Counted from the stretch's first letter, positions 19,158 to 37,594 are shown. The stretch is 64,000 nucleotides of DNA from a virus (IMGVR_UViG_3300015263_001568:1-64000); one strand, 5' to 3'. Notes: generated by a model from the sequence alone, not told the origin. Numbers and translations are program-made.

Positions 19158-19246
19158 TTTCTTGCGTCTCCTTATAGGTTTTACGCACTCCAGTTCCATG
19201 CGGAGTGCCGCAGTACCCCATAAGGTTAACTACAAAAATGGTCGGA

Positions 19247-20850: not shown

Positions 20851-22446
20851 CTATGTGAGGTCTTCACGTAGTCGAATGAATCGGTTAAATCGTCCAATCG
20901 CAACTTCTGTCTTATCACCTTGAACGCGAAAGTCAACCTTCATCCCAACGATGTCTTTGCGTTTTTGCCAGTACGTCATACGCTGGTCGTTATCCGACGC
21001 ATGAGCAAACCCCCCACCAACATGAAATTGGCGCCCTTTGTACTTCACCACAAAGTAGCCGAGGCGCTCACCATAACGGTACGAGCAATGCCCCTTCCGA
21101 TGCGTAGAAATCCGGCGGTCCGTCGCATCACTAATAGCTTCACGTAGTTCGGCGCTAAGTGCCCGCGGCCGATCTACAGAACAATGCAAGTACGAACCAT
21201 CGTCTTCGACAGATCCCCACTCCTCCATGATGGCACGTACCTTCTTGACGTCTGCCTTGGAGGCACCCGCGTGCTTGCCCTTACCCGCCACCGCATCAAC
21301 GATGGTACCGGTCACATCATCCTCTGGCTTCAACTTCAGGCACAGGTCGGTACGCTTGAACACATGTGGTGCCTTGGGGTCTTTGACCATGATGCCTTCA
21401 AACGATTGGTCGAGGCACCAATCGTAGTAGGCTTGCATCTCGTCCACGTCCAACACCATCCGATGCGCCAGAATCCACACATTGCTGGAAAATTTGGCAA
21501 CGCGCTTGGCTTTTTGCCAATTGGCTACCGTTGACAATAGCGCCCTTTTACGACGGCTCCACGCCACGTCAAACGATCCGCGCATGTAGTTTGGCAGCCA
21601 GGACCAATCGAATAGCACGCAGCGCACTTCCTTCAAAAAGTCGCGCTTGTTGAAGTTCTTTGTGCTGCGGATCAAACTTGACGTACGGTTCCAGCTTCCA
21701 TCCACTGCCAGAAATTCACCGTCCAAAAAGACGGGTTTGTCTTCGCGCGTCTTGGTGATGCGGTTAAGCGCGCGAGCGATATCACAGAGCTGCGAAGAAA
21801 ATTCCGCTACCTGCTCGATGTGCTCACGGCGCTTATTTCCGCGCGTGTAAATGTGAATGCGCTGCTCAGCCGGAAAGGCAAATACCAATGCGCGCTCGCC
21901 ATCCAGCTTGGGCTCCACCGCCAAGGGAAAACGTGGGCGCTTGCTGCCCTTGTAGACGTCTTCGTACTTCTTTGCCAGCAAGCAGCCGTTAAAGCTCCAT
22001 CCGCGGTCTTTTTCCTCGGTAGAACGCCAGAAGTCCTTTCCCCAAATCTTGGTGATGGTCTTTTTGCTTACACCGATACGTAAATCGTGGTTGAGGATGC
22101 GGCGAAACCACTTCGCGAGATGCTTGGGAACCGACACCAGTAGCCGGTCTGTAGCCATGGAGGCTGTCTGCCCAGTCATTTCGCGTGACGTCAAAGCCTT
22201 TGCCAAGCGCACGAACTTGTCCCACGCTTCCCGCTCATCGGGAACCGTTACCGCCGGGACAAGGTTGGCAGTAGGATGCACATGGTACATGTCGCCACCG
22301 AGTGCCATCAAGACAATGGTACGCAGCAACTGGTTGTCTTTTTCCTGCTCCAAGACAGTCTCTTTGGAGAGGCGACTAGACATGTTCTCCATGTGATCGA
22401 GAGCCTTAATAGCGGCCTCGATTTCTGCCTTCGTGACGCGCGGCAT
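20851..22446 (-). CDS. lig: ATP-dependent DNA ligase
   Basis: Motif I EPKLDGER, motif III FLDGE, IIIa LFD, IV EGIMVK, V KLKP. Confidence 0.93.
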   Translation of the reverse strand: MPRVTKAEIEAAIKALDHMENMSSRLSKETVLEQEKDNQLLRTIVLMALGGDMYHVHPTANLVPAVTVPDEREAWDKFVRLAKALTSREMTGQTASMATDRLLVSVPKHLAKWFRRILNHDLRIGVSKKTITKIWGKDFWRSTEEKDRGWSFNGCLLAKKYEDVYKGSKRPRFPLAVEPKLDGERALVFAFPAEQRIHIYTRGNKRREHIEQVAEFSSQLCDIARALNRITKTREDKPVFLDGEFLAVDGSWNRTSSLIRSTKNFNKRDFLKEVRCVLFDWSWLPNYMRGSFDVAWSRRKRALLSTVANWQKAKRVAKFSSNVWILAHRMVLDVDEMQAYYDWCLDQSFEGIMVKDPKAPHVFKRTDLCLKLKPEDDVTGTIVDAVAGKGKHAGASKADVKKVRAIMEEWGSVEDDGSYLHCSVDRPRALSAELREAISDATDRRISTHRKGHCSYRYGERLGYFVVKYKGRQFHVGGGFAHASDNDQRMTYWQKRKDIVGMKVDFRVQGDKTEVAIGRFNRFIRLREDLT

Positions 22447-23600
22447 TATTCTGCCTTGGTGGTATGGTGGTGCACGGCCTTTTTGACGATGGCCGGCTTG
22501 TACAGCTCACGGAAGTCCTTGAGAGGATACGTCAACGTGATGCCCGCGTGCACGCCTTCGATGCAAATCAGCGAAACCTGCCCTGCGGCATTTTTCGCCA
22601 CGAAGCCCTTGCATGCCATTCCGGTAGCACGGTCCGTCCACGTCACGGTGTCGCCCAGCGCGAACTTGAACTTTTCCTTGTCCTTCGTGCTGCCACGTCG
22701 GCGCATGACGACGCTGTAGTCGCTGAAGAACCTACGCGCGAGGTCGATCTGCTCAGCGTTGGTAAAGCCATTCAGAATATCCTGAACGCTTTGCAGTGCG
22801 TCATCGATCTTCAGCGCCGGATAGGACCTCTGGCACTTTTCCTCGAACCACTTCAACACGCGCTCTTGTCCCCGCAAGTAGTTGTAATGAACTTCCGAAG
22901 CGCGCTTGAGAAGCTCAATCGTGGGCTCGTCCATCCCCATAGCCTCTGGCACCACGTCGGCCATCTCATGGCTAATGAAGAATGACTGGCAGCTCCACTT
23001 GTCCTCACGCATCGGCTCGCCGCTGACCGTGTTCTTCTCGCTGCACACCGCTCCATGAGGGCCTACATACTTCCACACTGCGCACTGTCGGCATTCCAAG
23101 GGGATGACATCGCCGACCACATAGTCCTTACCAGCATGCTGGTAGCCCTTCTGCACTGTGTAGGTAGACGGTAACTGTTTCGGCTTCGGTCCACGCTTTG
23201 CTTGCTCCTTGGAAGACGTTGCAGCCTTTGCAGGCGCAGCAGACTTTACAGGAGCTGCCTTCGCTCCCTTTTTTGGCGGAGCGGGCTCGTCATCCTCGTC
23301 TTCGTCTTCATACTCGAAATCATCATCCTCCTCGTCGCCATCCTCCTCTTCATCGAAGTCCTCGTCGTCTTCGTCCTCGTCGTCTTCGTCGTCCTCCTCT
23401 TCGTCCTCCTCCTCTCCATCCTCGCTATCTTCCCCGTCCTCGCTATCTTCCCCGTCCTCATCCTCATCGTCGAACTCTTCGTCGTCCTCGTCTTCCCCTT
23501 CCTCGTCCTCGAACTCTTCGTCGTCCTCGGTAATATCCTCGTCTTCGTCGTCCAGTGCCTCAACCGCGGCTTCTAGCTTTTTCCGGCTATCCTTAGACAT
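22446..23600 (-). CDS. Protein with about 90-aa D/E N-terminal tract, Cys cluster and C-terminal KOW/SH3-like domain
   Basis: AGGAGG RBS; CRQC..C..C; KFALGDTVTW motif. Confidence 0.75.
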   Translation of the reverse strand: MSKDSRKKLEAAVEALDDEDEDITEDDEEFEDEEGEDEDDEEFDDEDEDGEDSEDGEDSEDGEEEDEEEDDEDDEDEDDEDFDEEEDGDEEDDDFEYEDEDEDDEPAPPKKGAKAAPVKSAAPAKAATSSKEQAKRGPKPKQLPSTYTVQKGYQHAGKDYVVGDVIPLECRQCAVWKYVGPHGAVCSEKNTVSGEPMREDKWSCQSFFISHEMADVVPEAMGMDEPTIELLKRASEVHYNYLRGQERVLKWFEEKCQRSYPALKIDDALQSVQDILNGFTNAEQIDLARRFFSDYSVVMRRRGSTKDKEKFKFALGDTVTWTDRATGMACKGFVAKNAAGQVSLICIEGVHAGITLTYPLKDFRELYKPAIVKKAVHHHTTKAE

Positions 23601-23608
23601 GTGGCCTC

Positions 23609-24400
23609 CTATTCGTCGTCTTCGATTTCTGCCAGGGCTCCGACAACCAATCGTATGTCATCGGCGTCGACTTTATGTTCCTGCGCAATCGCTTCGATAT
23701 TTACTTCTTCGCGGTCTTGCGCCTCAAAATAATGGTTCACAGCTTGGCCGAGATAGATCCCATCACCGTCAATGCCTTCAACCCAACGGTAAAAGCTCAC
23801 TGCGGTATTTTTTCCTACACCTACCTTGGTCAAACGCTTACACGTTTTCTTCCACAAATCCTGGCTAATGTCGTCCATCAAACGCTTCACTGTCAACCGG
23901 CGAATTCGGTCGTGGTAGCGTTCATCGACTTCTGCAAGGATTTTGTCGAACCACCATTGCAAGCGCCGCCGCGGTGCTTTAGCCTTTTTGTCTACAACGA
24001 GCGCAGCTTCTTTGACAGAGGAAGCAAGCGGGATGTCCACAGCCTCTTCCTCGATGCGTTGATTTACCACATCCGGAAGCTGCCGCAGCATCTCGACCAC
24101 TTTGCCTTCGCGTGTTACTGCGTCAATGATGGGGACACCCATACGATTAAGGTCTTCTGGATTGCCAAAAACCAGCAAGCGGTGAATGCTACTATGGTGC
24201 TCGCGCAGCGCTTGCAACTTGCTCGTATCGCGCAGTAGCACAATGTGCCGCTTGTTCGTGTCTGACAAATCCAAGTCTTCAGGCAGCTCCGGTAGTGGCG
24301 GATACACATGCATCCGCTCGCCTCGATTGTACTTGTAATGGATTACAATGACTTCTGGCGAGAGCACCGAAAAGCCTACCGCTCGCACGGTTTCGCTCAT
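23609..24400 (-). CDS. Hypothetical protein
   Basis: 263 aa within the coupled block. Confidence 0.7.
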   Translation of the reverse strand: MSETVRAVGFSVLSPEVIVIHYKYNRGERMHVYPPLPELPEDLDLSDTNKRHIVLLRDTSKLQALREHHSSIHRLLVFGNPEDLNRMGVPIIDAVTREGKVVEMLRQLPDVVNQRIEEEAVDIPLASSVKEAALVVDKKAKAPRRRLQWWFDKILAEVDERYHDRIRRLTVKRLMDDISQDLWKKTCKRLTKVGVGKNTAVSFYRWVEGIDGDGIYLGQAVNHYFEAQDREEVNIEAIAQEHKVDADDIRLVVGALAEIEDDE

Positions 24401-24963
24401 TGTTGCACTATCCTTCTTAGGCGTTCAAACAGCGGCGCTCGCGCACTGGAAAATGGGAGTACCACGGACAGGTAGCCTGTGTCAATGGCGGTGATTTCCG
24501 TGTTCAGCGGGGCCTTGGTGTTCGCATCATCGCCAATGAATTTTACCTGGATACGTTTGTTGCCCTGCACATCTTTCAGCCGAACATTAGGCTTGCTGCT
24601 GATCAAGCTTGGATGGCTGACAATTGAAAATCCGGTGTCTGTTACGATGAACGGCAGCTTTTCAGGAAGAAAGCCCGCAATCTCCTGCACTGTATTGTGC
24701 AGCAGCTTATGGGTATCATCCCAACGCTCGTCGTACTCTTGACACAAATCCCAATACAACATAGCCGCAGTCTTATCCGACTCGATGCGCGCCATGCGTT
24801 GCAGCAATGCCATGCTGGAAAGAGTAAATGAGCGGCCGTCTTTCATGAGGATGCGCAGCGCGCCATCACCGAACGATATCTGCTGCACTATGTTGGGGTT
24901 TAGGAACTCGTACAACGACGCGCTTCCTTCACGGTACATCTGTAGAAAAACGTTGACCAACAT
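24397..24963 (-). CDS. Hypothetical protein
   Basis: Start moved to ATG 24963, immediately after the sbcC stop. Confidence 0.6.
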   Translation of the reverse strand: MLVNVFLQMYREGSASLYEFLNPNIVQQISFGDGALRILMKDGRSFTLSSMALLQRMARIESDKTAAMLYWDLCQEYDERWDDTHKLLHNTVQEIAGFLPEKLPFIVTDTGFSIVSHPSLISSKPNVRLKDVQGNKRIQVKFIGDDANTKAPLNTEITAIDTGYLSVVLPFSSARAPLFERLRRIVQQ

Positions 24964-24964
24964 A

Positions 24965-27394
24965 TTAGCTTCGATCGTAGCGTGCTGCAATTTGTTGATA
25001 GCGCGCAGGGATGCCGCCTCTATACAGCGTTGACTCATTATTTTCGCGAACAGCCCACCACACTTGGTCCCAAACGGGATCTGCCAAAACTTCAGGCCGA
25101 TGGCTTACGACGAACACCGAGCCGAACTTTTGGCGCAGCATGCCTAGGATGCTGATCAAGCCAGCCGTCCCCTGCGGGTCGAGGCTTCCAAATGGTTCGT
25201 CTACAATGAGCACGTTTGTCGATGACTCTGTGTAGCGCTCTTTAAGGTCTCGCATACCAAACAGCATTGCCAATCCACTTTTGTGCTGCTCGCCTCCAGA
25301 TAGCAAGCTGCTACGCGTGGCAATATTACCATCTCGGCGACGGAGTTGGAATTGTATCGCATCCATGCTCTCTGACAACTCCAAGTCCACCGTGCGTCGG
25401 GGCCAGAGCACACTACTATACACCGGTACAGTAGTCTCAGTCGCGTCCTGCAAGATGGCGCGAAATCGATCTTGCTTGAGACCTTGGCTGCCGAATGCTT
25501 TCTTGAGGGCCTCCAGGCAGCGCTTGTTGCGCAGGATGCCAGTACCCTTAGCCAACCCCTTACGGACTTGAGCAAGCCGTGCCTGGAGCGTCTCCGATGC
25601 GCTGAGGCGCTCTTCCAGGATGGCTATCTGCCGACTCAGGTCTTCGGTCTGCGCAGTAGCGGAGCTGACGATCTTCTCGGCTCTGGCTAGCTGCTCCGCA
25701 GTCTGCTCGCGATTGCCTTTGGGAAGATCATCCATCTGGTCAATCCGAGTGCGCACCCGAGCAATAGCCTTCGCTCGTCGGCGCAGAGCGTTCGCCTTTT
25801 TGTGCAACCCGGCGATCTGCTCTTCTGGAACCGTACCGCGTGCATCTATTTCTTGTATCTGAATCTCAAGATCGTGCTTTTGCTGCGAAATTTCTTTTTC
25901 AGCCACCAGTTCTTTTTCCCGCTTGGTGGCTGTACGGATATCGCGCTGCACCTCTACCGGTGTGCGGGTGGTATCGATGGACTTGAGCCGTGCAGCTAAC
26001 TGCTCATACTTTTCTGAAGTTTCTAGCGCCGACTTGGCAGCGAATATTTCCTTCTTGACTTTACGCAGCTGCTGTCGGGCACCGCGCAGCTTTTCCCGCA
26101 GTGCTTCTGGATCGCTTTTTGTGTCGAGAGGGCGGTGGCACGTTGGGCAAACGCTCTTGTCTAAATGGCGTACTGTTACCTCTATCTCACGCTCTAGCGC
26201 CCCTTCTTCACGCATATACGCTTCTACTTGCTTGCGCAGCGGCTCAACATTTTCAGGCGGCTTGTCGAGTCCGGCCAGCTCTTCCGTGATTTCGTATCGC
26301 TGCTCAGCCTGTGGTAGCTCGGTATTTTGTAGGTAGCGCAGCTGTGACTTTACTTCGCTCAAGTCGGTGTCGATGTCCGCTAAGGCACGTCCAGACAGCT
26401 TGGACAGCTGGCGCTCAAGAATGTCTCTTCGTTGCGCTGCTTCACGTTGACGTTGCGCTGTATGATATGCATCCGACGCATCGGTGGCTTGTTGGTCGAT
26501 GGATTCGACTTCGGCGTCATCGATATCCGACGGTTTGTCGTACCATTTCCCGAGGTCTGCATCGTCCCAGATCACTCTGACCTGCTCAATAAGTTGCTTG
26601 CGCTGGTCGAGCTGGTTCAAGCGATCTCGTAGCTCCCGTGATTCCTGTACAGCCGCGTTGGACTCTGTGCGCAGCTCTTTTAGCTGGCGCTTGCGCTTCT
26701 TGAGTCTGGAACGCATTTTGTCGACATCACCAATATCGCCAGCGCGCGCTTCGAGGCTACCCAACTCGCGTTCCAAAGCCTCGATGTCGACCAAGCTAGT
26801 GGCCACGGATTTTTCACGGTCTCGGAAAATGGCGTACATGTTGTCGAAGACATCAAGCCCAAACATCTCTGTCAGGCGTTTGTAGCGATCGCTTCGCTTA
26901 CCATGCAGTAGCACATGGCTTAGCTTCTGCGGCAGGTACACCAAGTTGAAAAAGCTTGTGTCATCCAGACCTAGGTGAGCCTCACGGATCCATTTATGCG
27001 GCGCACGCGCAGCTCTGCTCGGAATGATGTTTTGGCCTGTGGACGTGTCCACAACACGGATCGCATCACCGTGAAGCGTGTGCTTACGATATTGTCGAAT
27101 TTCAAACGGGCGGCCATCTACGCGGTATTTTAGCACCGCCTCGAAGTCTTTTCCCGCAAGGTCGTTGACAACGTCGTTCTTGGAAAATTCCTGGCCCGAG
27201 CCTCGACCTCCGTAGCCTACCTGGATACTGGAAAATATTTCCCACAGTGAGGTTTTTCCACAAGCCAGGAAGCCACCATCGTCTACGTTCAATCCGCGCA
27301 CCAACACCAACCCTTGACCATCCAACGGTAAGTCGCAGTGGCGGTAGACGTAGCCGTTTTTGAACGTCAGGTGATCGTACTGAATGTGCGGCAT
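24965..27394 (-). CDS. sbcC: SbcC/Rad50-like SMC ATPase
   Basis: Walker A ACGKTS, Zn-hook CPTC in the coiled coil, signature LSGGE, Walker B/D-loop IVDEPFGSLD, H-loop VSH. Confidence 0.93.
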   Translation of the reverse strand: MPHIQYDHLTFKNGYVYRHCDLPLDGQGLVLVRGLNVDDGGFLACGKTSLWEIFSSIQVGYGGRGSGQEFSKNDVVNDLAGKDFEAVLKYRVDGRPFEIRQYRKHTLHGDAIRVVDTSTGQNIIPSRAARAPHKWIREAHLGLDDTSFFNLVYLPQKLSHVLLHGKRSDRYKRLTEMFGLDVFDNMYAIFRDREKSVATSLVDIEALERELGSLEARAGDIGDVDKMRSRLKKRKRQLKELRTESNAAVQESRELRDRLNQLDQRKQLIEQVRVIWDDADLGKWYDKPSDIDDAEVESIDQQATDASDAYHTAQRQREAAQRRDILERQLSKLSGRALADIDTDLSEVKSQLRYLQNTELPQAEQRYEITEELAGLDKPPENVEPLRKQVEAYMREEGALEREIEVTVRHLDKSVCPTCHRPLDTKSDPEALREKLRGARQQLRKVKKEIFAAKSALETSEKYEQLAARLKSIDTTRTPVEVQRDIRTATKREKELVAEKEISQQKHDLEIQIQEIDARGTVPEEQIAGLHKKANALRRRAKAIARVRTRIDQMDDLPKGNREQTAEQLARAEKIVSSATAQTEDLSRQIAILEERLSASETLQARLAQVRKGLAKGTGILRNKRCLEALKKAFGSQGLKQDRFRAILQDATETTVPVYSSVLWPRRTVDLELSESMDAIQFQLRRRDGNIATRSSLLSGGEQHKSGLAMLFGMRDLKERYTESSTNVLIVDEPFGSLDPQGTAGLISILGMLRQKFGSVFVVSHRPEVLADPVWDQVWWAVRENNESTLYRGGIPARYQQIAARYDRS

Positions 27395-27927
27395 TATGGT
27401 GTGGGTTTCTTCGGCTTCTTCGGTTTAGTGGCGGTGCTCTTAGGCTTGCTAGTTTTCGTCTTCGTTGTCTTTGCTTTACTCGTCGGCTTTACGACAGAGG
27501 TACTTTCTGCTTTTGGTTTGCGCTTAGTGGTGCGCTTTACCGGCGGAGGCGGTTCTTCCACAGTAGGAACTTCTGGTGCAGTAGGAACTTCTGGGGCAGC
27601 TTCTATGACAACTGTAGTTTCTGGCTCGATGATGGGCGTATCGATCGGCTCGGGGATGACGTCTTCCAGCACTTCTGGTGGCAAAGGCGCCATTTTTGCT
27701 TGTGCCAGCTCCAACAAACGAATGAAGTCCCCCATCAATACAAGGCGCCGGCCACGGCCCACCAAACCAGACCGCAGATGCTGCTCCTGGTCTTCACGTA
27801 GCTGCATCACTACATAGACGTTGTTGACATCCTCTTCAATAGCAGCCGCCAGATCACGGGCGTTCCTGCTAGAGAGAAATGCAGCCAACGTCACATGTGG
27901 GTCAGATTTTTCAGACATCTTACCCAC
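27394..27927 (-). CDS. Hypothetical protein with P/E-rich then K/T-rich disordered tail
   Basis: ORF track and composition; the start could instead be the internal MSEKSD. Confidence 0.65.
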   Translation of the reverse strand: MGKMSEKSDPHVTLAAFLSSRNARDLAAAIEEDVNNVYVVMQLREDQEQHLRSGLVGRGRRLVLMGDFIRLLELAQAKMAPLPPEVLEDVIPEPIDTPIIEPETTVVIEAAPEVPTAPEVPTVEEPPPPVKRTTKRKPKAESTSVVKPTSKAKTTKTKTSKPKSTATKPKKPKKPTP

Positions 27928-28141
27928 CTGTCAGTAGCGCAATGTACGGGACCAACTCAGCTGGAACAGGGTCTAGGGTTACGTTGGTGGATGGGTAATC
28001 AGCGCAGTTAGTATTTGTGCAGACAGCTTTAGTCACCACAAAATGGAACACTGTGTTTTCAGGCTCCACATCTGTGCGGCGCACTTCACTTCCCGTGACC
28101 ATGAAATTGGTGTGGTTGCCGCAGACATTGCAAGTTGGCAT
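27920..28141 (-). CDS. Small Zn-binding protein
   Basis: CNVC...CTNTNC; AGGAG RBS. Confidence 0.65.
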   Translation of the reverse strand: MPTCNVCGNHTNFMVTGSEVRRTDVEPENTVFHFVVTKAVCTNTNCADYPSTNVTLDPVPAELVPYIALLTGG

Positions 28142-28144
28142 TTC

Positions 28145-29335
28145 CTACTCTCCTTTACGCCGACGAGGTTTCTCTGACCAGGAAGACGTCACCGCAATGG
28201 CGCGCAACGTAGCCATATCGAGTAAGCCATGCTGGCTAGCGTACGATCGAGAGCGCTCTTGCACTCCGAGGAAAATGTCCAGCAGCTTGGCAATGTCTTG
28301 TATCTTCGCTACGTCGTGGTGCCCGTTTGGTAAACTAACACCTTTAAGATACCACGAATTTTGACTTATAGGAAGACGGCTTGGCTCCACCCAAGTGTAG
28401 AGAATTTGCTGAATGGTGGTGATCACACGGTTCAGAAAGAATACTAGGTCTACGGAGTCCGCCATGGCCTTTTGTACAGCAGCGAGCGTCTGCTCATATC
28501 GACCTTGGAACAACCCATCTACATACTGCTGCACGATGACGTAGCTGGCATAAGACTCCGACTCCTCCAGCACCTTCGGCAGCAGCGTTTCTAGGTCGAC
28601 TTTTCCATCAGCAACTTCCACAGCGTTTCTGAGCTGCGATAGCAAGGTCAGCGCATCTCTTGGATGACCGGCTGAAATTTCCGCGATCTTCTTCAGCCCT
28701 GTCTTCAGCTCTGCTTTCTTGAGCCCACTAGTGTGCAGTTCTTCTGCTTTGGCCACCCGCGCGAGCAGGCGATAGCACTCTGGCACCGTGACTGGGTTTA
28801 GATGGTAGCGTTGGCAACGGCTCAGAATGGTGCGCGGCACCAATTCCGGATTGGTGGTGCACAGAATAAAGCGCGTTCTCGGTGGTGGTTCCTCAAATAT
28901 CTTGAGCGCTGCTTGAAACGCGTCTTTGGTGATCTGGTGAGCTTCATCGAAGATGTACACCCGAAAGCGGCCAAAGCGCGGGGCGTACGCGATGTGCTGT
29001 TTCAGATCGCGAATATCACCGATGCCGCGGTTCGAGGCTGCGTTGATTTCCACAACGTCTGGGTGCTCCCCTTCACCACGGATGGCTTTCAACATGATTT
29101 TGCAGCTTGGGCATTCACCACAAGGCTCTTCCGCTGACTTTCGGCACACCAGATAGCGAGCGATCAAACGCGAGAAGCTGGTCTTGCCGGAGGAGTATGG
29201 GCCACTGAACAGAATCGTTGGAGCGATCCGCCCAGACTTGAGCATGCCACGGATATTATCCACGACATGTTCTTGGCCGATGACTTCCTCTAGCGTGGTT
29301 GGTCGATACTTGTTTGCGAGGCTTTTCGATTCCAT
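28145..29335 (-). CDS. dnaX: DNA polymerase III clamp loader gamma/tau
   Basis: LANKYRP..EVIGQ, Walker A GPYSSGKTS, Zn module PCGECPSC, DEAH and SRC motifs. Start set at MESKS. Confidence 0.93.
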   Translation of the reverse strand: MESKSLANKYRPTTLEEVIGQEHVVDNIRGMLKSGRIAPTILFSGPYSSGKTSFSRLIARYLVCRKSAEEPCGECPSCKIMLKAIRGEGEHPDVVEINAASNRGIGDIRDLKQHIAYAPRFGRFRVYIFDEAHQITKDAFQAALKIFEEPPPRTRFILCTTNPELVPRTILSRCQRYHLNPVTVPECYRLLARVAKAEELHTSGLKKAELKTGLKKIAEISAGHPRDALTLLSQLRNAVEVADGKVDLETLLPKVLEESESYASYVIVQQYVDGLFQGRYEQTLAAVQKAMADSVDLVFFLNRVITTIQQILYTWVEPSRLPISQNSWYLKGVSLPNGHHDVAKIQDIAKLLDIFLGVQERSRSYASQHGLLDMATLRAIAVTSSWSEKPRRRKGE

Positions 29336-29339
29336 TTGT

Positions 29340-30401
29340 CTAGTCATCCTCGTAGGGGTTGCTGAAGGAAACACCTAGTTCCTTTGCCGCCGCGTCGACG
29401 AACTTGAACGCGTGTGGCAAATACTCCTCCGGCAGACCAGCTTGCAGCAGTGTGTTGTCCAACCCGTCGAAAATGCCATGCACTCGGCGCGCATTCTGTG
29501 GAAGCGCTCGCGCCGGCATCTCTTCTCCAGGTTCAACATTCATCGGTAAAGGCATGGTGGACGTGGGCATCGCGTGGAGCTTCACAAAAGCTTCAGCCGC
29601 GCTAGGCCACACGTCAGGAACTTCATGTAGTTCAATCAGCTTGGTAGAACGTATTGGGACGTATTTCGGATTCGTTGGATCGGCGGTATCGACGACCAAA
29701 ACGCCTTTGTCGAGGTCTTCTCCAAATCTCGTTTGGTGCGGTGCGCCGCAGTACCACGCATTGGGCAAAATCGACTGCCGTTTATGGATGTCTCCAAGTG
29801 CCCAATAAGTAACGCCGTCGATCGGTTCCAAGTGCACTTGCGCATTCGACGTCACCATGAGCCCAGTATCCGTTTTGCTACCCACCACATTTTCATGCAG
29901 CACGACAATGATTGGCTCACGATGACGCTGCGCATACCGCACCATCGAGTGCACCATCAAGTAGACCTCTGCATCCTTCCACCCGTGACTGGGATCTCTA
30001 GCGGGAAACAGAAGCAGCTGACATCCATGCATCGACTTTATCAATGGCAAGCCGTCATGAATGAAATGCTTCCCCAAAATGTCGGTCATCCGGCTCAAGT
30101 AGCTAAGCGACGTATCCCCAATTTGACTTGAACGCACATCATGGTTCCCGCTGATCATCACGATGGGAACCGGCGACGACGCCAGCCAGTCCGTGAGGAC
30201 TTGTCGTTCTTGATGCAGGATGTCGCGGCGTTCCCAAATGTCACCAGCAACGATGGTAAAGTCGACGCGGTGCTTTCTAGCCGCCTTATGTATGCCCTCC
30301 AACGTCTGCACCATCCGACGCAAATACGCGGCCTGACTATGATCAGAGAACCGCCGCAGCGCATTGATGTGCAAATCGGACGTATGCAGAAACCTAGGCA
30401 T
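29340..30401 (-). CDS. sbcD: SbcD/Mre11-like metallophosphoesterase nuclease
   Basis: HTSDLH, AGD, GNHD and LGDIH motifs. Confidence 0.9.
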   Translation of the reverse strand: MPRFLHTSDLHINALRRFSDHSQAAYLRRMVQTLEGIHKAARKHRVDFTIVAGDIWERRDILHQERQVLTDWLASSPVPIVMISGNHDVRSSQIGDTSLSYLSRMTDILGKHFIHDGLPLIKSMHGCQLLLFPARDPSHGWKDAEVYLMVHSMVRYAQRHREPIIVVLHENVVGSKTDTGLMVTSNAQVHLEPIDGVTYWALGDIHKRQSILPNAWYCGAPHQTRFGEDLDKGVLVVDTADPTNPKYVPIRSTKLIELHEVPDVWPSAAEAFVKLHAMPTSTMPLPMNVEPGEEMPARALPQNARRVHGIFDGLDNTLLQAGLPEEYLPHAFKFVDAAAKELGVSFSNPYEDD

Positions 30402-30775
30402 CAGAGGTCGTGCGGCCGAGCCGTCTTGCGCGCATTCTCCTGCACGCGCTTTACAGCCTTCAGCATCATGCCATAGACTTCGTGGGCAAGAGCGCTGGTA
30501 AGCTTGGGATCGATGCGCACGTCGTGGTACTTGAAGTATTCCTTGATTTTAGAAGCGGTCAGGATCTTGACGCCCATCTCCTTAACGGCCTTCTGGTGCG
30601 CCTCCAACCGAGCGCGCTTGTCATTGCTCTGAGCCGACCCATCAGCACCCTTCTTGGACTTCTTTTTCTTCTTTGCCACAGGAGCATCACCCTCGGTCTT
30701 TGCCTTCTTCTTTTTCTTCTTCGCTGTGGTGGCGTCGCCGTCGGTGATGGTCTTCTTAGTCTTCTTTTTCTTCAT
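30401..30775 (-). CDS. Histone-fold protein (bacterial short-alpha3 type) with K-rich N-tail, from an internal start
   Basis: AAGGAG 8 nt before ATG 30775. Core ILTASKIKEYFK..VRID..SALAHEV..MMLKAVKRVQENARKTARPHDL carries the RKTxxxxD histone signature. Confidence 0.8.
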   Translation of the reverse strand: MKKKKTKKTITDGDATTAKKKKKKAKTEGDAPVAKKKKKSKKGADGSAQSNDKRARLEAHQKAVKEMGVKILTASKIKEYFKYHDVRIDPKLTSALAHEVYGMMLKAVKRVQENARKTARPHDL

Positions 30776-31318
30776 TGAGTCGGCTCCTTGTCCATGCCGT
30801 TTATGATGACATGGTATGCAGAGTGTGCGCATGTTAGCGAGGTCACATTGTCCTCCACCTTGATGCACAGGAATGATGTGGTCGGCATCCCAATAGCCCC
30901 GAGATTTTCGTGCCCCACGCGGTGCTCCCAAGATACGCTGCCAATGCATGGCATCGATAGTGCGCTCGGCAGACACAGTGTCGAGACCGCATTCTGCGCA
31001 TATACCACGGTCGCGAGAGTAGACTTGTCTGCGTAGATATCTCGGATCGCTACGGAGTTTGAACTCTTCCACACAATGGTCTGAGCAAAACGTGCGGCGC
31101 CCTTTCGGCACCTCGATTTTGCAGTAGCGGCAGAGGCTGCGGCCGTTCGCACCTTTGGGCAATAGCTGCGGGTAGCGAACACGTCCGCGGAACGCGCCAC
31201 TACGCATAGTGCCGTCTGCCTCAAAGTACATTTTCGTGTACTGTGCACGTAGTTGCTCAACCTCTGTGTCAGACAGCGCACTTAAAGGCCGACGGCGTCT
31301 TCGATGGCGTTTTCTCAT
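30401..31318 (-). CDS. HNH endonuclease fused in frame to a lysine-tailed histone fold
   Basis: RDRGICAECG, DADHIIP and NMRTLCIPCH HNH motifs; no stop before MKKKK...RKTARPHDL. Confidence 0.8.
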   Translation of the reverse strand: MRKRHRRRRRPLSALSDTEVEQLRAQYTKMYFEADGTMRSGAFRGRVRYPQLLPKGANGRSLCRYCKIEVPKGRRTFCSDHCVEEFKLRSDPRYLRRQVYSRDRGICAECGLDTVSAERTIDAMHWQRILGAPRGARKSRGYWDADHIIPVHQGGGQCDLANMRTLCIPCHHKRHGQGADSMKKKKTKKTITDGDATTAKKKKKKAKTEGDAPVAKKKKKSKKGADGSAQSNDKRARLEAHQKAVKEMGVKILTASKIKEYFKYHDVRIDPKLTSALAHEVYGMMLKAVKRVQENARKTARPHDL

Positions 31319-31729
31319 CGGCTAGTATTTGCTGCGCATAGCGACCTGGAAACGTTACAGGATTTATCTTTCGCAACATGGTCAAAATCGCTTTGGATGG
31401 CTTTACCCAACCTAACGCCAGTGCTGACAGCGCAATTGTTTGCAGGTTCTCGTCATTCAGGCATTCACGAAGAATGATCTGCTGCTGCCGCATGTCGGAA
31501 ACAAGCACGCCAAGATACACTTCCAAGGCTTGTCCACGCAGCAGAAAGTCCAGATTAGTATCTCGGATGAGGGCACGTATTTGGCGTCCGGTTCCTTTGT
31601 CATCCGAAATGATGGCGTCTTCTAGCTGCGCCAGTGCGCTTTATACTCTCGTGGTCGATCCTCCAAGAGCAAGTAGCGAACTTGTTCCAATACTGATTCC
31701 GGTGGTGATGTTGCATTAACTGGTAGCAT
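31269..31729 (-). pseudogene. Frameshifted hypothetical gene
   Basis: A 35-aa ORF from ATG 31729 (TAATG coupling) is joined by a -1 shift near 31640 to the frame ending at 31269. Confidence 0.5.
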
Positions 31730-32697
31730 TAAGACCTATGCAAAATAGCTCCTACTGGAAGCTTGGTGCTCTTCCAGCCTCGGTGCTTTTGTAGTTCCTC
31801 AACGTAGACTACCGCGGCCCCCTGTAGGCCACCGAGCTGCTGGAGCACCGCAGCAGCACGATCACGCGATGGTCGTGCCCAGAATACCGTATTCGAGCCG
31901 TCGTAGAAACTCGTGACTTTTTCAATGGGCGAATGGTCGATTTGCATCGTGAGCAGCCGCCCATGTACATCGCCCAAGCGACTATCGATCAAGTCAAGCT
32001 GCTGGTAGAAAGCTGCTGCTTGACGCCGATCAAACGCCTCTTCTGGATGCCGAGGTTGCAGCAAGCCTGTACGTCGCCGGAGACCGGCTACAAGCTGTCG
32101 CCGTGCTTCCAGGTAGAAGGCCCATATGGTTGCCGACAAAGGCTTCCTATGGGCCTCTACAGGCGTCCAGGTAGCAAGCCAGACATCCTGCGCAGCGACC
32201 GGCATCAGCCGACTCAGGGCAAACAAGCGCTGCCGTTCAACGCCCGTGCGCAGTGCATGAAAGAGGCCGAAGGCTAAACTATTGATATCATTGAAAACTT
32301 CAATGGACGAAGGCGGAAACCCAAGCCAAGGCGGACTGCCGTTACCGAGAAGGTCTACGCGCGTGCGAAATGCCTTCCAAAATGGCTCGACCACTTCTTC
32401 GACCGCACCTTTCGTGGTGAGCCACTTTGACACACTTTCTGCCCAACGAGTAGCCTTTGCCGCAGCGAGCACGAGGACGTTTCGCTGGGCATCCTGTAAA
32501 CGCTGTAGGAAGCTCTTGAGGTCACTCAAGGGTTTCGCTACCTGCCAGGTACCACTGGGGCCTTCCTTGGCGCCTCGTGGCGTCCAGGAGGCATCCCAAG
32601 ACTGTGCTGCATGGATAGTGCAGTGTGGCCCGCCGTTGCGCTTGCCGTGGATGACGCACACAGTGTCCGCAAGGCTATTCGTCATCGTCATCGGCAT
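31729..32697 (-). CDS. Hypothetical protein
   Basis: 322 aa, coupled to recA. Confidence 0.65.
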   Translation of the reverse strand: MPMTMTNSLADTVCVIHGKRNGGPHCTIHAAQSWDASWTPRGAKEGPSGTWQVAKPLSDLKSFLQRLQDAQRNVLVLAAAKATRWAESVSKWLTTKGAVEEVVEPFWKAFRTRVDLLGNGSPPWLGFPPSSIEVFNDINSLAFGLFHALRTGVERQRLFALSRLMPVAAQDVWLATWTPVEAHRKPLSATIWAFYLEARRQLVAGLRRRTGLLQPRHPEEAFDRRQAAAFYQQLDLIDSRLGDVHGRLLTMQIDHSPIEKVTSFYDGSNTVFWARPSRDRAAAVLQQLGGLQGAAVVYVEELQKHRGWKSTKLPVGAILHRS

Positions 32698-33964
32698 AAT
32701 AGCGGGACCGCGGAGCTGCGTCTGTCTTCGATTTGGTCTTCTTGGCTTTCTTTGATTTTTTGGTAACAGCTGTCGTTTCTATGACAATTGGAGTCTTCGT
32801 ACGCGGCTTCTTGGTGGTAGCCGTCGCAACCACATCCTCTCCATAGTCCTTGTCGAAGTTGTACGTACGATTACCAGAAATCTCAAAAAAGCGGTCGTAG
32901 TTTTCAGGCTGCTGCAACATCAGAAAGAACTTCTGTCGATTGCGCGGACTGTAGCTCATCTTACGAAACGATGGCAGGTCCCACTTCTTGTTATCGAGGC
33001 CCTTGAGGTTGATCGAACGCCTTCCAGCCGCCGTCTTCAAAAATCCCAAGGCTGCCAAGAATTGCTGCGTGTCGTACGCCTTATCCACGCCATGGCCTGG
33101 GATGATCTGCAAATCAACGGTGAGCCAACTAGGAAAGCACTTGTTCTTTGTGGTGCGCACCGTCGCCGGAATAATTTGGACACCCATACTATCCCGGCTC
33201 TCTTTTCCAAGTGTCTTGTCACTGCGTCGACTTACGCGCAGCTTGTAGTCCGGATAAAATCGCAGCGCTTTTCCGCCAGTTTCTTGGTCAGGGGCACCAT
33301 AGGCACCAATGTTGCTCCGCACTTGATTTGTGCCGACCAACACGCCGCCTTTTTTGCGCAGGCGTACCTTAATTTGCTTCAGGTACTGACTATGCATCCT
33401 AGGCTCCGGTGTGATGCCACCACCCGTGCCTGTTTCCTCATCCACGTTTTCACTGCTCAATGCCGCAAAACTGTCGACAAAAAATGCGATAGTTGGAGGA
33501 CCCGACGTCACATCCGGCATCCGATTAAGCGTGCGCATGATGAGGCGATATGTGTCTTCTCCCGTGTCAGGCTGTGCGTAGTAAAAAGACGCGTACTTCT
33601 GCTTACCAACGCTTAGCTTGTGCTCAATCCGTAGTCCTTGCCGCTGCATGAACACAGGATCGGCACCAGTTTCTGGATCGAGGAACACTACAGGAATGCC
33701 TTGTAGCTGTGCCGACACGGCAATTTCTTGTAGTAAGGTAGATTTACCAACGTGTTCTCCGCCAAAGATGGTGCAGAACCGACCACGCTGAAGTCCGCCA
33801 CCGAAAATCAAATCCAGCGATAGGACACCTGTAGAAAGGCAGTCGAGGACACGCTGACCTTTCATCAGATTGATTGGGTCTAATCCATCAATGGAGGCAA
33901 ACGCTTCGGCAACAGCCTGAGAAGGATGTACCAGGTTGTATTCGCGCTTTTTCTTTTTCGCCAT
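32675..33964 (-). CDS. recA: RecA/UvsX recombinase
   Basis: STGVLSLDLIFGGG, Walker A GGEHVGKST, QPDTGE, VDS, NQVR, GGKALRFY and KNK motifs. Confidence 0.95.
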   Translation of the reverse strand: MAKKKKREYNLVHPSQAVAEAFASIDGLDPINLMKGQRVLDCLSTGVLSLDLIFGGGLQRGRFCTIFGGEHVGKSTLLQEIAVSAQLQGIPVVFLDPETGADPVFMQRQGLRIEHKLSVGKQKYASFYYAQPDTGEDTYRLIMRTLNRMPDVTSGPPTIAFFVDSFAALSSENVDEETGTGGGITPEPRMHSQYLKQIKVRLRKKGGVLVGTNQVRSNIGAYGAPDQETGGKALRFYPDYKLRVSRRSDKTLGKESRDSMGVQIIPATVRTTKNKCFPSWLTVDLQIIPGHGVDKAYDTQQFLAALGFLKTAAGRRSINLKGLDNKKWDLPSFRKMSYSPRNRQKFFLMLQQPENYDRFFEISGNRTYNFDKDYGEDVVATATTKKPRTKTPIVIETTAVTKKSKKAKKTKSKTDAAPRSRYYADDDDE

Positions 33965-34348
33965 TTAGTACATCAACGGAGTGAAGATGCTGGATAGCAC
34001 GGAGTAGTTAGCCAACCCGTGATGCCGGGCTGCTTCCACTCCTCCAACACGAACACGGATTTGAGGCAGCATCGCGACGCCTAGCTCGGTGGCGCCTTCA
34101 AGTGCTTGGGTGATGACGATGGGAGCGCGAAATTCGTGCCGCTCCACAAAATGGGCGATAACGCGTTTAGCCTTCTCACTTAGAAAGTCGTCTCCGAGCA
34201 GTACGATCCCCAAGTCTGGAAATACCCTTGTAAGGCTAACCACGGCTTGCCACGGTACAGGAAGCAACCGTCCAAAGTAATAACGAATATCGGCTCTAAT
34301 GTAGTCCATTACCGTGACAAGTACAGACAAGCCGGAAGCCATAGGCAA
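33965..34348 (-). CDS. Thioredoxin-fold-like protein lacking CxxC
   Basis: ATELGVAMLPQIRVRVGGVEAARHHG resembles the Trx C-terminal cis-Pro motif; the protein has no Cys. Confidence 0.4.
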   Translation of the reverse strand: MPMASGLSVLVTVMDYIRADIRYYFGRLLPVPWQAVVSLTRVFPDLGIVLLGDDFLSEKAKRVIAHFVERHEFRAPIVITQALEGATELGVAMLPQIRVRVGGVEAARHHGLANYSVLSSIFTPLMY

Positions 34349-34397
34349 CGTCTACATTTCACTTCAGCTAGATGCTGCCCATAGCACGCCGGTGCCG

Positions 34398-36146
34398 TTA
34401 CCGCCCGCGACCTTTTCCCGAGCGCTTCTTTGCCGGTGGCTCGTCGTCCTCATCCTCCTCATCCTCGTCGTCCTCGTCCTCATCGTCTAGATCGTCGTCG
34501 TAGTCCTCATCCTCCTCATCCTCGTCGTCTAGATCGTCGTCGTCATCCTCGTCCTCGTCGTCCTCATCCTCGTCGTCCTCGTCGTCCTCATCCTCGTCGT
34601 CGTCCTCGTCGTCCTCATCCTCGTCGTCTAGATCGTCGTCGTCCTCGTCGTCCTCATCCTCATCCTCGTCGTCCTCGTCGTCCTCGTCCTCGTCGTCCTC
34701 ATCCTCGTCGTCTAGATCGTCGTCGTCCTCGTCGTCCTCGTCCTCGTCGTCTTCGTCCTCGTCGTCCCCATCCTCGTCGTCCTCGTCCTCGTCCTCGTCG
34801 TCTTCGTCCTCGTCGTCCCCATCCTCGTCGTCCTCGTCCTCGTCCTCGTCGTCCTCGTCCTCGTCGTCCTCGTCCCACTCTTCGTCGTCATCTTGTACAA
34901 AGCTACGCCCACTGGGTGGCGTCTCCGCCTCGTCTTCGTCGTCGTCATCATCATCTAGATCAGGCTTGGATGGCTTGGCCTTTTTAGCCGGCTTCTTTGC
35001 CGACTTTTTCGCGCTGCTCTTCTTTGCAGGCTTGGCATCTTCTTCATCCTCGTCCTCATCATCTAGGTCAGGCTTGGACTTTTTCGCGCTGTTCTTCTTT
35101 GCAGGCTTGGCGTCCTCATCAGCGCCCTTTTTACCTTTCTTACCCCAGCCCTTCCAGTCATCACCAGCGTCGTCATCGTCATCATCCGACTTCGATTTGG
35201 ACTTCTTCGGCTTCTCAGCCTTCACCTTGCCGGCCTTCTTGCTCTTGTCCTTGACCTTGGACTTTTTCTTATCCTTGTCTTTTGTCTTGGCGGCCTTCTT
35301 ACCCTTGGACTTCTTCGGAGTCTCTTCCTCTTCGGCATCGTCATCAGTCTCGTACTCGAAGTCGTCATCAGTGACTTTGGATTTCTTCTTGGAACTACTG
35401 CTTGTGCTCTTCACTGCGCTTCTCCCAGTTGTTTTTTCCAGTAGAGTGTAGAGACCCACCCGTTCTAGATCAATGCGTGTAGTGGCGCCGTCTTGCAGAC
35501 CGGCATTCCACATGCTCAAAAAGTCCTGTTCTCCTCCCTCGTACACGCGCTTGCCAACTTTGATTTGATAAATGTCATCGAGTTGCTTAATGGGTAGCCG
35601 GTCACCCTTTACGAACGCATCCTTTTCCTTAGAGTCCTTAGCGTCCTTATTGTGCGTCCAGTACACGGACACACCATACTTCGGATGTACGATGGTGCCC
35701 TCACCGCCCCTAATGGTCTTGCTGATATTTAGCAAGTCGGTGTACCCATACTTGTTCAACTGCATCGCCCCAGTACCGTTTTGCACATTGCCCTGCTCCA
35801 ATGCAGTAATGTTGAAACTATGTGCGATGTAGCGCCGTTGTGGGTAAAAGAGAAGTTCTTCTGGCAGATCGTCACCGGTGAAGTCAGCGCACAAAGGGCA
35901 ATCGCACTTGTTCGCCGGAAGGGTGCTATCGTTCACTGGATCGAAGTTCGAGCAAAGCTGCGGGAACGTCTTTACTTCACCCTTCTTGTTTATAAACCTG
36001 ATCCAGTGCCACACGAGCACAAAAATGTGTCCGTAAAGCCTATGGATGTGTTGTCGACCGCCAGCTGGCGGTTCGTGATAATGCGCCTTGCCGTCCCACC
36101 GTTCACGCTTGTTGCTCGTACGTGGCGGATTATTCCAATCGTGCAT
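34398..36146 (-). CDS. gp32-like single-stranded DNA-binding protein with K-rich linker and about 150-aa D/E tail
   Basis: HWIRF..QLC..CDCPLC..RRYI Zn-SSB pattern; GAGGAG RBS; position upstream of recA. Confidence 0.7.
   Translation of the reverse strand: MHDWNNPPRTSNKRERWDGKAHYHEPPAGGRQHIHRLYGHIFVLVWHWIRFINKKGEVKTFPQLCSNFDPVNDSTLPANKCDCPLCADFTGDDLPEELLFYPQRRYIAHSFNITALEQGNVQNGTGAMQLNKYGYTDLLNISKTIRGGEGTIVHPKYGVSVYWTHNKDAKDSKEKDAFVKGDRLPIKQLDDIYQIKVGKRVYEGGEQDFLSMWNAGLQDGATTRIDLERVGLYTLLEKTTGRSAVKSTSSSSKKKSKVTDDDFEYETDDDAEEEETPKKSKGKKAAKTKDKDKKKSKVKDKSKKAGKVKAEKPKKSKSKSDDDDDDAGDDWKGWGKKGKKGADEDAKPAKKNSAKKSKPDLDDEDEDEEDAKPAKKSSAKKSAKKPAKKAKPSKPDLDDDDDDEDEAETPPSGRSFVQDDDEEWDEDDEDEDDEDEDEDDEDGDDEDEDDEDEDEDDEDGDDEDEDDEDEDDEDDDDLDDEDEDDEDEDDEDDEDEDEDDEDDDDLDDEDEDDEDDDEDEDDEDDEDEDDEDEDDDDDLDDEDEEDEDYDDDLDDEDEDDEDEEDEDDEPPAKKRSGKGRGR
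34440..34895 (-). repeat. Low-complexity GAC/GAG/GAT coding repeat (D/E tract)
   Basis: tcg/tcc/tca triplets with a recurring tctagatcgtcgtcg unit (DDDLDDEDE). Confidence 0.9.
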
Positions 36147-36217
36147 GCTTTCTCCTCGACAGGTTGGTGACGTTAACGTGAAAGCTATTATCGTAGTTCG
36201 CTGCGAAAAGCAAGAAG

Positions 36218-37594
36218 TTACGTAAGTAGCGGGATTCCCTCGGAAGGTTTACCAGGTGTTGTGTCTCGCATGCTACGGTGCAACTGCGCTGCTTTGGCCA
36301 ATTGGCGTAAGCGCTCTTTCAATCCTTCGGTAAGGTTGAGCCCTTCGTTCAGTACGCCTTCGATGTAGCCATACTTGAGGCAAACGAGGCGCCGCTCATC
36401 GGGTTCTAGGTGGTCCAGGATAGCCTCAATCGATTCCCGCATGTAGCCCAGCTCTTCTTCGTCCTCCCCATCTTCACCTGTTTGCAGATAATCGTAGCCA
36501 GACTCGCCATCGGGTGTCACGGTGCTCAACGGGACTACTTTAGCTTGCTGCACCTTTTGTCGTACGCTGACGATGGTCTTTGTAGACAAGCCACTCAGCT
36601 CGGAGACATCTTCATCGGTATACGTGTCTCGCGTTGCAGCGACAGCTTGCAGACGCCGTTCAGCAGCACGTATTTTCTGCCAGTTTTCCAGTACAGAATT
36701 CGGTAACCGGATGATGGGGCTGAAGTGCTTACGGCTCTTCATGATGCGTTCGCGGATCCAAGTTTGCGCGAATGTTGGGAAGCTTGCTCCCTTGCGCACG
36801 TTAAACCGGGACACCGCTGTAGCCAGCCCCATGCTTCCAGCCTGGAAAAAGTCGAGCGCTTCGATTTCGCTTTCTGCGGCGCTGCGGGCTAGTTTTGGTA
36901 CGAGGCGCATGTACGCCTTGATAATCCGCTCTTGGCGCTTGCGGACTTTTTCCATCAAGCTCCGAATGATGCGATATGTCCCATACAGCTCATTCGGAAG
37001 CACGCACCCAACCGACATCTCGAACATTTGAACGTCGTCGATGAGATCACCGATACGGCGCATGTCTTCAATCAATGGTTTTCGTCGGCGGTCACGGCGA
37101 ATGCGCAATGTCAGCACAGCCAACGCATCACGCGCTTCCATGTAGCCTTTGGCTTCTTTGAGGAAGGACAACAGGATATTTTCGTAAAGGCTGGTGCTGA
37201 GGCGCAAACTGCGGAGGATTTTCTTGACGAGTGGTACCGCTACTTCGCGCTCGGTTTTGCTGAGTTTGAACAGGTCGAAGCCGATGCCAAAAATGCGGGA
37301 GTTCGTTGACCCGATTTCGATGTCTTGCCCGACGTCTATTTTTCGGCGCGAGATGCTACCGCGGTAGACTTTTCGATTTTTTATGTGGCCGCAGGCAATC
37401 TCTGACAAGAGGTAACAGAGGTTGTCCTCGACATAGGTAGTGGTTTGCAACAGGACGTGAATCCCGTAGCTCATAAGTTCTTCAATTTCCAAGAAAACCT
37501 TTGTAAGTGCATCCCGCTCCAACGGAGGGTACTGTAGGGTTCTCTTTACCAGGGCATTGAAGGTGTCGTAGGTTTCGCTTGTCTGTCGTGCCAT
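36218..37594 (-). CDS. Sigma-70 family RNA polymerase sigma factor
   Basis: Region 2 YMRLVPKLAR..DFFQAGSMGLATAVSRFN..GASFPTFAQTWIR, IIRLP, region 3 HTH and region 4.1 LEPDERRLVCLKYG. Confidence 0.9.
   Translation of the reverse strand: MARQTSETYDTFNALVKRTLQYPPLERDALTKVFLEIEELMSYGIHVLLQTTTYVEDNLCYLLSEIACGHIKNRKVYRGSISRRKIDVGQDIEIGSTNSRIFGIGFDLFKLSKTEREVAVPLVKKILRSLRLSTSLYENILLSFLKEAKGYMEARDALAVLTLRIRRDRRRKPLIEDMRRIGDLIDDVQMFEMSVGCVLPNELYGTYRIIRSLMEKVRKRQERIIKAYMRLVPKLARSAAESEIEALDFFQAGSMGLATAVSRFNVRKGASFPTFAQTWIRERIMKSRKHFSPIIRLPNSVLENWQKIRAAERRLQAVAATRDTYTDEDVSELSGLSTKTIVSVRQKVQQAKVVPLSTVTPDGESGYDYLQTGEDGEDEEELGYMRESIEAILDHLEPDERRLVCLKYGYIEGVLNEGLNLTEGLKERLRQLAKAAQLHRSMRDTTPGKPSEGIPLLT

Follow-up and report, generated by a model that had tools for sequence, protein, structure and literature searches.

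Nested in-frame genes with internal initiation are known from gene 4A/4B of T7, C/Nu3 of lambda and the transposase/inhibitor of Tn5, and in these classic cases both forms are conserved and needed. The present study concerns a locus on the minus strand of a viral DNA stretch of 64,000 nucleotides (nt) (IMGVR_UViG_3300015263_001568:1-64000, the whole of which is called the window here), in which an HNH nuclease and a histone share one open reading frame (ORF) and the histone has a start of its own inside that frame. Phage-encoded histones of the bacterial type have been described only recently. The Lys-tailed viral face-to-face histones (VFFH) of phages have already been reported (bioRxiv 10.1101/2024.12.06.627149), and the prokaryotic alpha3 histone families, including the Rab-GTPase and ZZ histones, were described by Schwab et al. 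2024 (PMC11390915). As for an HNH partner, the term 'HNH' occurs 0 times in both of these histone surveys. We consider it likely that the locus carries a lineage-specific fusion, in which an HNH gene lost its stop upstream of a conserved and independently translated histone gene, and that this was a roughly neutral accident and not a selected device.

The long frame was as the sequence-only reading of this stretch had it: an ORF of 305 amino acids (aa) at 30401..31318 (-), in which the HNH part runs in frame, with no stop, into the histone and the in-frame ATG at 30775 has AAGGAG 8 nt ahead of it (Table 1). On the minus strand this Shine-Dalgarno (SD) sequence occupies 30789-30784 and is followed by the 8-nt spacer CCGACTCA and by the ATG at 30775-30773, which is codon 182 of the frame. 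In the window, AAGGAG-N4-11-ATG occurs at chance frequency (4 observed vs 3.5 expected), and by itself the motif proves nothing. Strong SD sequences stand ahead of 13 of the 74 first starts vs 5 of the 468 internal in-frame ATGs, and in this DNA a strong SD marks real starts. The histone leader of the window, acAAGGAGCCgactcaATG, resembles the intergenic sequence aaAAGGAGCCagaaaATG of one related locus (L094), and an SD (AAGGAG, AAAGGAG or AGAGG) was found 6-9 nt before the histone ATG in all seven distinct relatives. It follows from this shared leader and SD/ATG that the ATG at 30775 is the ancestral histone start and that the codons for GQGADS are former untranslated leader. The HNH part has a GC content at third codon positions (GC3) of 0.52 and the ~410 nt upstream of the frame one of 0.43, as against 0.74-0.77 in the histone part and a mean of 0.61 (standard deviation 0.066) for the genes of the genome. 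This sharp change at the junction supports the view of two units that differ in history or in level of expression. Around the internal start, the RNA fold was unremarkable (z -0.6), and a promoter/terminator scan of the minus strand at 29300-32800 gave no relevant promoter-like site.

The relatives were found by scanning metagenome and viral contigs with the adjacent SbcD protein of the window and then by local profile searches, and synteny was determined by tblastn; three of the loci (L081/82/83) are the same contigs as L090/91/96. Seven distinct relatives share the block, with SbcD proteins 41-47% identical to that of the window, in the order sigma factor, acidic protein, p127, RecA, (p322), histone, SbcD, clamp loader, SbcC and, further along, ligase. 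In all of them (7/7) the histone is a free gene of 81-95 aa directly before SbcD. Five of the seven (L081/82/83, L088, L089, L092 and L093) have no HNH and carry a free histone of 81-91 aa just before SbcD; in L081 the histone ATG follows 15 nt after the stop of the gene upstream. The other two, L094 (a 90-kb contig) and L095, have a 171-aa HNH of the same family directly upstream of the histone, which ends at its own TAA stop and is followed, after a spacer of 128 nt in L094 and 98 nt in L095, by a histone of 94-95 aa in a different frame. This HNH family was not found in the complete 349,793-bp genome of one relative, and a positive control on the window's own record worked; the HNH is therefore regarded as accessory.

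Whether homologous loci keep the fusion had been named as a check in the sequence-only reading, and the fused form was seen in 0 of the 7 syntenic relatives. The other origin which it had offered, a free HNH that came to lie upstream and lost its stop, agrees well with the free histones of the relatives and with the two separately stopped HNH genes. A stop between HNH and histone, which in that reading spoke against a two-product gene, is present in both HNH-bearing relatives and absent in this record itself. Wider searches led to the same result, with the fused form in 0 of 35 histone relatives (among 1.84 billion representatives), 0 of 65 HNH relatives and 0 of 80 viral HNH loci; it was also absent from a search for longer proteins, which was a weak one. 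Scans of viral contigs with the histone fold alone or the HNH part alone, and a metagenome scan with the 166 aa that span the junction, gave no match. As far as these searches reach, the fused architecture is seen only in this record and is a singleton.

The histone assignment, which had been made at first without database searches, was confirmed by homology and by modelling. A phmmer search against PDB sequences matched HTkC (9f2c, E 2.9e-5) and HLp (9qt0, E 7.6e-4), and a profile from 28 histone relatives matched HLp 9qt0 at E 6.4e-19, HTkC 9f2c at 9.8e-13 and HBb at 6e-9. An AlphaFold2 (AF2) model of the 124-aa histone, built with the 28-row family alignment, had a predicted local distance difference test score (pLDDT) of 87-95 over the fold, with helices at 47-71, 74-83, 90-113 and 121-123 and with alpha3 of just 3-4 residues. 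The top Foldseek matches of this model were HLp, HTkC and HBb, at a template modelling (TM) score of 0.89 and a root-mean-square deviation of 0.8 A. For the full 305 aa, an AF2 model from the single sequence reached a pLDDT of 41.6, too low for use. In the histone alignment (124-aa numbering) R116 is nearly invariant and T118 and D123 are invariant, and the spacing R116...D123 equals that of R55-D62 in HLp (the RD clamp). No Pfam family matched the 124-aa protein at E <= 0.1, the curated histone and DUF1931 models included, and the Pfam histone models appear too narrow for this branch. By homology and by model, the C-terminal part is an alpha3-truncated histone, closest to the face-to-face type, for which oligomerisation and DNA binding are predicted. 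The exhaustive search of the 1.84 billion representatives gave 35 relatives of the histone domain, which are 65-150 aa long and have the domain at the very C-terminus, save two repeat proteins; K/A/P-rich N-terminal tails occur on many free-standing members of the family. In L094 (5058-5983) and L095 (228-1120) the histone tail is Ala/Pro/Val-rich and not Lys-rich, and the histone is 26% identical to that of the window; the chemistry of the tail thus varies greatly in this phage histone.

The HNH part was matched by Pfam HNH PF01844 over residues 142-175 (32.8 bits vs a gathering cut-off of 21.4) and by PHROG 11604 (E 8e-20). Besides the zinc ribbon and the core listed in Table 1, a second CxxC pair (C107/C110) is present upstream of the core, and the catalytic His (in D146-H147), the structural Asn162 and the metal His171 of the family are all in place. 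Of the columns in the family alignment, 27/27 invariant and 20/21 near-invariant ones are retained, the lone loss being a Leu of the helix after CxxCH, which is Gly178 in the window. Judged by these residues, the HNH part is that of a zinc-ribbon HNH endonuclease, and DNA cleavage is predicted. Members of the family have 12-42 residues between CxxCH and the stop; the window has 10, then the histone Met and no stop. Apart from Met38, the HNH could start at Met1 (31318) or Met30 (31231), and none of the three candidate starts has a good SD, with GAGG lying 11 nt before Met38; the HNH starts of L094 and L095 are likewise without SD. We found 65 HNH relatives, nearly all of them free-standing, 167-196 aa long and 44-60% identical over the domain. 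The histone part was covered by none of the 65, and a histone fold was found near the HNH in 0 of the 80 viral loci carrying the family. The family member of phiCbK sits between the RNase H and scaffold genes, and from this placement and the 80 loci it follows that the HNH has no constant functional neighbourhood. Three further members, P0002 (252 aa), P0049 (252 aa) and P0043 (438 aa), have long unrelated C-terminal extensions of 81-309 residues past CxxCH, and C-terminal read-through or fusion may be recurrent in this HNH family.

The fusion could have arisen in the following way. The ancestral state would be a small alpha3-truncated histone gene with its own strong SD/ATG, directly upstream of SbcD in a replication/recombination block. 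In the lineage of the window, an accessory zinc-ribbon HNH gene would have come to stand upstream of the histone, and would then have lost its stop, the short post-CxxCH helix and the spacer of ~100-130 nt that is present in the relatives. The HNH frame would now continue across the histone leader, together with its SD, into that of the histone. In the 33 nt that separate CxxCH from the ATG, none of the frames encodes the usual post-CxxCH helix, which makes an in-frame deletion the simpler account as compared with a point change or a frameshift. For the same reason we rejected a frameshift error as the simplest origin of the fusion. In quick trees the window HNH did not stand beside the HNHs of L094/L095, an approximately unbiased (AU) test did not reject a common clade of the window and L094/L095 HNHs (p 0.49), and in the SbcD tree the three lineages form a trichotomy; one or two acquisitions of these HNH genes would both fit.

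Several observations weigh against a neutral accident. With all its invariant residues kept, the HNH shows no decay, and this leaves room for selection on the long form. The HNH also stands beside the histone in two of the three deep lineages of the phage group, and given the AU result (p 0.49) the HNH-histone pairing may be old and not purely accidental. Furthermore, the comparison rests on only seven relatives, all of which are 41-47% identical in SbcD.

Under a lineage-specific loss of the HNH stop, ribosomes at the internal SD/ATG (30775) would make the normal 124-aa Lys-tailed histone in quantity, and the few ribosomes at the weak HNH start would make an HNH-linker-histone of 268-305 aa. 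There is no stop after the HNH before that of the histone itself, and any HNH-initiated ribosome would therefore yield this long form. Mainly the 124-aa histone, together with a small amount of HNH-histone, is the predicted output of the locus. Histone folds are obligate dimers, and through such pairing the HNH-linker-histone could become part of histone dimers or tetramers on DNA. We infer the relative amounts of the products, the co-assembly of the long and short forms and the neutrality of the fusion.

In the sequence-only reading, the locus had been pictured as a two-product gene whose rarer HNH-histone delivers a nuclease to histone-bound DNA next to SbcCD. Its first part stands as a prediction, as the lack of an HNH stop and the conserved histone SD/ATG predict both products; a selected design for nuclease delivery was not supported, the fusion being a singleton. 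Still, an adaptive gene of this kind deserves to be weighed, in which a selected minor HNH-histone co-assembles with the free histone and places the nuclease on histone-coated DNA together with the adjacent SbcCD. The open frame with all 27 invariant HNH residues kept is consistent with it, as is the Lys-rich disordered tail, a natural flexible linker, and fusions of N-terminal domains to alpha3 histones do occur naturally in the Rab-GTPase histones (PMC11390915). A second lineage (L094/L095) has the pair of HNH and histone genes as well, with a single origin not rejected, and the link of histone and SbcD is conserved and, in the window, apparently one of translational coupling. However, no fusion was found among the 35 histone relatives, the 65 HNH relatives, the 80 viral HNH loci or the longer proteins (the weak search mentioned above), both two-gene relatives keep the stop, the spacer and the different frames, five relatives, including the complete 350-kb genome, are without this HNH, and the near-invariant Leu of the post-CxxCH helix has been lost. 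On this balance we regard adaptation as unlikely. It is similarly doubtful that the HNH-linker-histone is a functional isoform under selection, which would be brought onto the DNA of phage or host by pairing with the free histone, and that the recurrent pair in the window, L094 and L095 reflects a functional partnership and not repeated selfish insertion; if true, it would be the first natural histone-tethered nuclease.

There is also a small chance that the locus makes one product only, the 124-aa histone, and that the HNH part is silent or freshly dead. The three candidate HNH starts without a proper SD would agree with this, but the intact and separately terminated HNH genes of L094/L095 lack an SD as well, and a weak start would be normal for this gene. 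Low GC3 (0.52 in the HNH and 0.43 in the upstream DNA), the lack of a promoter-like minus-strand site in 29300-32800, the missing conserved C-terminal Leu and the one gene call on record that gives the 124-aa form alone point in the same direction; on the other side, the block is co-oriented and tightly packed, which would put the HNH on the same transcript as the histone, and the 27/27 invariant residues are intact.

Two sources, JGI/IMG and Logan, list a protein identical to the 305-aa product, encoded on a 112,193-bp contig, which makes an assembler artefact unlikely. The same locus received two gene calls, namely P0001 of 305 aa on the 112,193-bp contig and P0067 of 124 aa on the 80,099-bp record, in which the HNH has no gene call; gene callers are thus inconsistent on such loci, with 124 aa on one record and 305 aa on the other. 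It is very unlikely that the genome in fact has separate HNH and histone genes and that a stop was lost from the record by a small error of assembly or sequencing. If the frame were shifted by 1 nt shortly before the ATG, the HNH would terminate either at a TGA that overlaps the start of the histone (ATGA) or, directly past CxxCH, at a TAA. Against such an error, the identical product came from JGI/IMG and from Logan's separate assembly, and 100% of the sampled 31-mers of 30350-31400 are contained in the Logan contigs of X1, a run that may come from the same sample. A sequencing error is improbable where no homopolymer exceeds 3 in the 33 nt between CxxCH and ATG, and a single indel restores no normal HNH end, the post-CxxCH helix being in no frame.

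Table 1. Features of the HNH-histone locus and its surroundings, in window positions
Feature	Position	Strand	Remarks
Whole open frame, 305 aa: HNH nuclease, Lys-rich linker and histone fold	30401..31318	(-)	Translation; stop TGA at 30403-30401
Layout of the long frame			Residues 38-181 zinc-ribbon HNH; 182-229 Lys-rich; 230-305 helix and histone fold
HNH nuclease part from Met38	30776..31207	(-)	Met38 aligns with homologue starts; Pfam PF01844, PHROG 11604
N-terminal zinc ribbon (CxxC...CxxxC), C63, C66, C78, C82	31073..31132	(-)	Invariant alignment columns, all present
HNH catalytic core: D146-H147, N162, C167-x-x-C170-H171	30794..30895	(-)	Invariant columns, all present
Junction, 10 codons HKRHGQGADS between CxxCH and histone Met	30776..30805	(-)	End is the histone gene's own leader, now coding
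Shine-Dalgarno AAGGAG of the histone gene	30784..30789	(-)	8 nt before ATG
Histone gene proper, 124 aa from internal ATG	30401..30775	(-)	P0067; separate gene in every relative
Lys-rich N-terminal tail (linker in the long form)	30632..30775	(-)	Predicted disordered; AF2 residues 1-46 without secondary structure, pLDDT 54-68
Extra helix alpha0 and alpha3-truncated histone fold (alpha1, L1, alpha2, L2, short alpha3)	30404..30637	(-)	Homology and AF2/Foldseek
SbcD-like nuclease gene	29340..30401	(-)	Metallophos match; ATG overlaps histone stop
Gap between p322 gene and HNH frame, ~410 nt	31319..31728		GC3 0.43, lowest of region

At the downstream end of the frame, the histone stop shares bases with the SbcD ATG in the TGATG at 30401 (window 30399-30403), and this overlap suggests that SbcD translation is coupled to that of the histone; in L081 the histone-to-SbcD gap is 13 nt, vs the overlap in the window. 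At the upstream end, 31319-31728 holds two ORFs of 85 aa (-) and 113 aa (+), both doubtful. No homologue of the DNA at 31207-31760, or of the 37-residue N-terminal extension, was found in any compared relative locus, and 31319-31728 is probably part of inserted DNA.

The window belongs to a virus record of 80,099 bp, which encodes portal, large terminase, head-tail connector, ligase, helicases and a sliding clamp, and for which CheckV gave a completeness of 23%. The record of L088, at 349,793 bp and with direct terminal repeats, was rated complete, and those of L081/L083 were rated at 9-10%. From the portal, terminase and connector genes, the 23% completeness and the 349,793-bp relative, it follows that the record is probably a fragment, about a quarter, of a tailed jumbo phage of ~350 kb, and its group would likewise consist of jumbo phages of ~350 kb. 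The sole sequencing run that contains the stretch (X1) is a marine sediment metagenome. The wider co-oriented block of the window lies at 20851-37594 (-), includes a sigma-like factor, an acidic protein resembling single-stranded-DNA-binding proteins and a clamp-loader-like ATPase, and is found in at least seven related contigs, among them L081, L088, L089, L093 and L094, at 35-48% protein identity. At 34398-36146 (-) the block encodes a 582-aa protein with a very long, near-pure Asp/Glu tract and a basic C-terminal peptide, the N-terminal part of which is 29-34% identical in the relatives, with the giant acidic tract unmatched there. Elsewhere in the window, the longest ORF at 18333-19199 (-) starts at 19199, and an in-frame ATG at 19157 (codon 15) with a perfect AAGGAG upstream is probably the true start of this gene.

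These results show the histone gene as a fixed and strongly signalled member of the SbcCD/RecA/clamp-loader block in one group of jumbo phages. The locus is in effect a natural construct in which a histone is joined to a nuclease by the basic tail that belongs to the histone itself. Provided that the long form is made and active, it would offer a test of whether an alpha3 histone tolerates bulky N-terminal cargo and can target an enzyme to DNA bound by histones. In the case of an accident, which the evidence favours, the locus would be a clean example of how the loss of a gene end next to another gene gives rise to a new domain architecture, with the ancestral product still made from the old start.

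As compared with the face-to-face histones, which include HLp of Leptospira perolatii (9QT0), HTkC of Thermococcus kodakarensis (9F2C) and VFFH, the C-terminal 60 residues of the window histone align with HLp, with a TM of 0.89 for the fold; HLp and the window histone share the Arg...Asp spacing of the RD clamp type and the conserved RKT motif. The Lys-rich N-terminal tail is like that described for the viral face-to-face histones, but at ~46 residues it is at or beyond the reported range of 5-40, and an extra helix stands before alpha1. Unlike the face-to-face histones, the histone gene of the window is also the 3' part of a longer, nuclease-initiated frame. The HNH part shares with the free-standing zinc-ribbon HNHs of phages (PF01844; PHROG 11604; PMC3592412; phiCbK gp066) the ribbon CxxC...CxxxC, the two CxxC pairs and the DH...N...H core, and it is 44-60% identical to such proteins of ~170 aa. 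Its place resembles that of phiCbK gp066, which occupies an intergenic slot before highly expressed genes (in phiCbK, those of scaffold and capsid). In contrast to the free-standing proteins, the window HNH has no stop of its own, and the usual 12-42 post-CxxCH residues are replaced by 10 of the histone leader and then by the whole histone.

As in T7 4A/4B, lambda C/Nu3 and Tn5, there are two starts in one frame, and the short product is the C-terminal part of the long one and could assemble with it; unlike in these classic nested genes, only a single record has the long form, and the short form corresponds to the free gene of the ancestral state. The Rab-GTPase histones (PMC11390915) have the same arrangement as the window, with the added domain N-terminal and the alpha3 fold C-terminal, but the Rab-GTPase and ZZ histones are conserved families. 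The histone is thus of an already described kind, and its joining to an HNH nuclease is a new but singleton variant of architecture.

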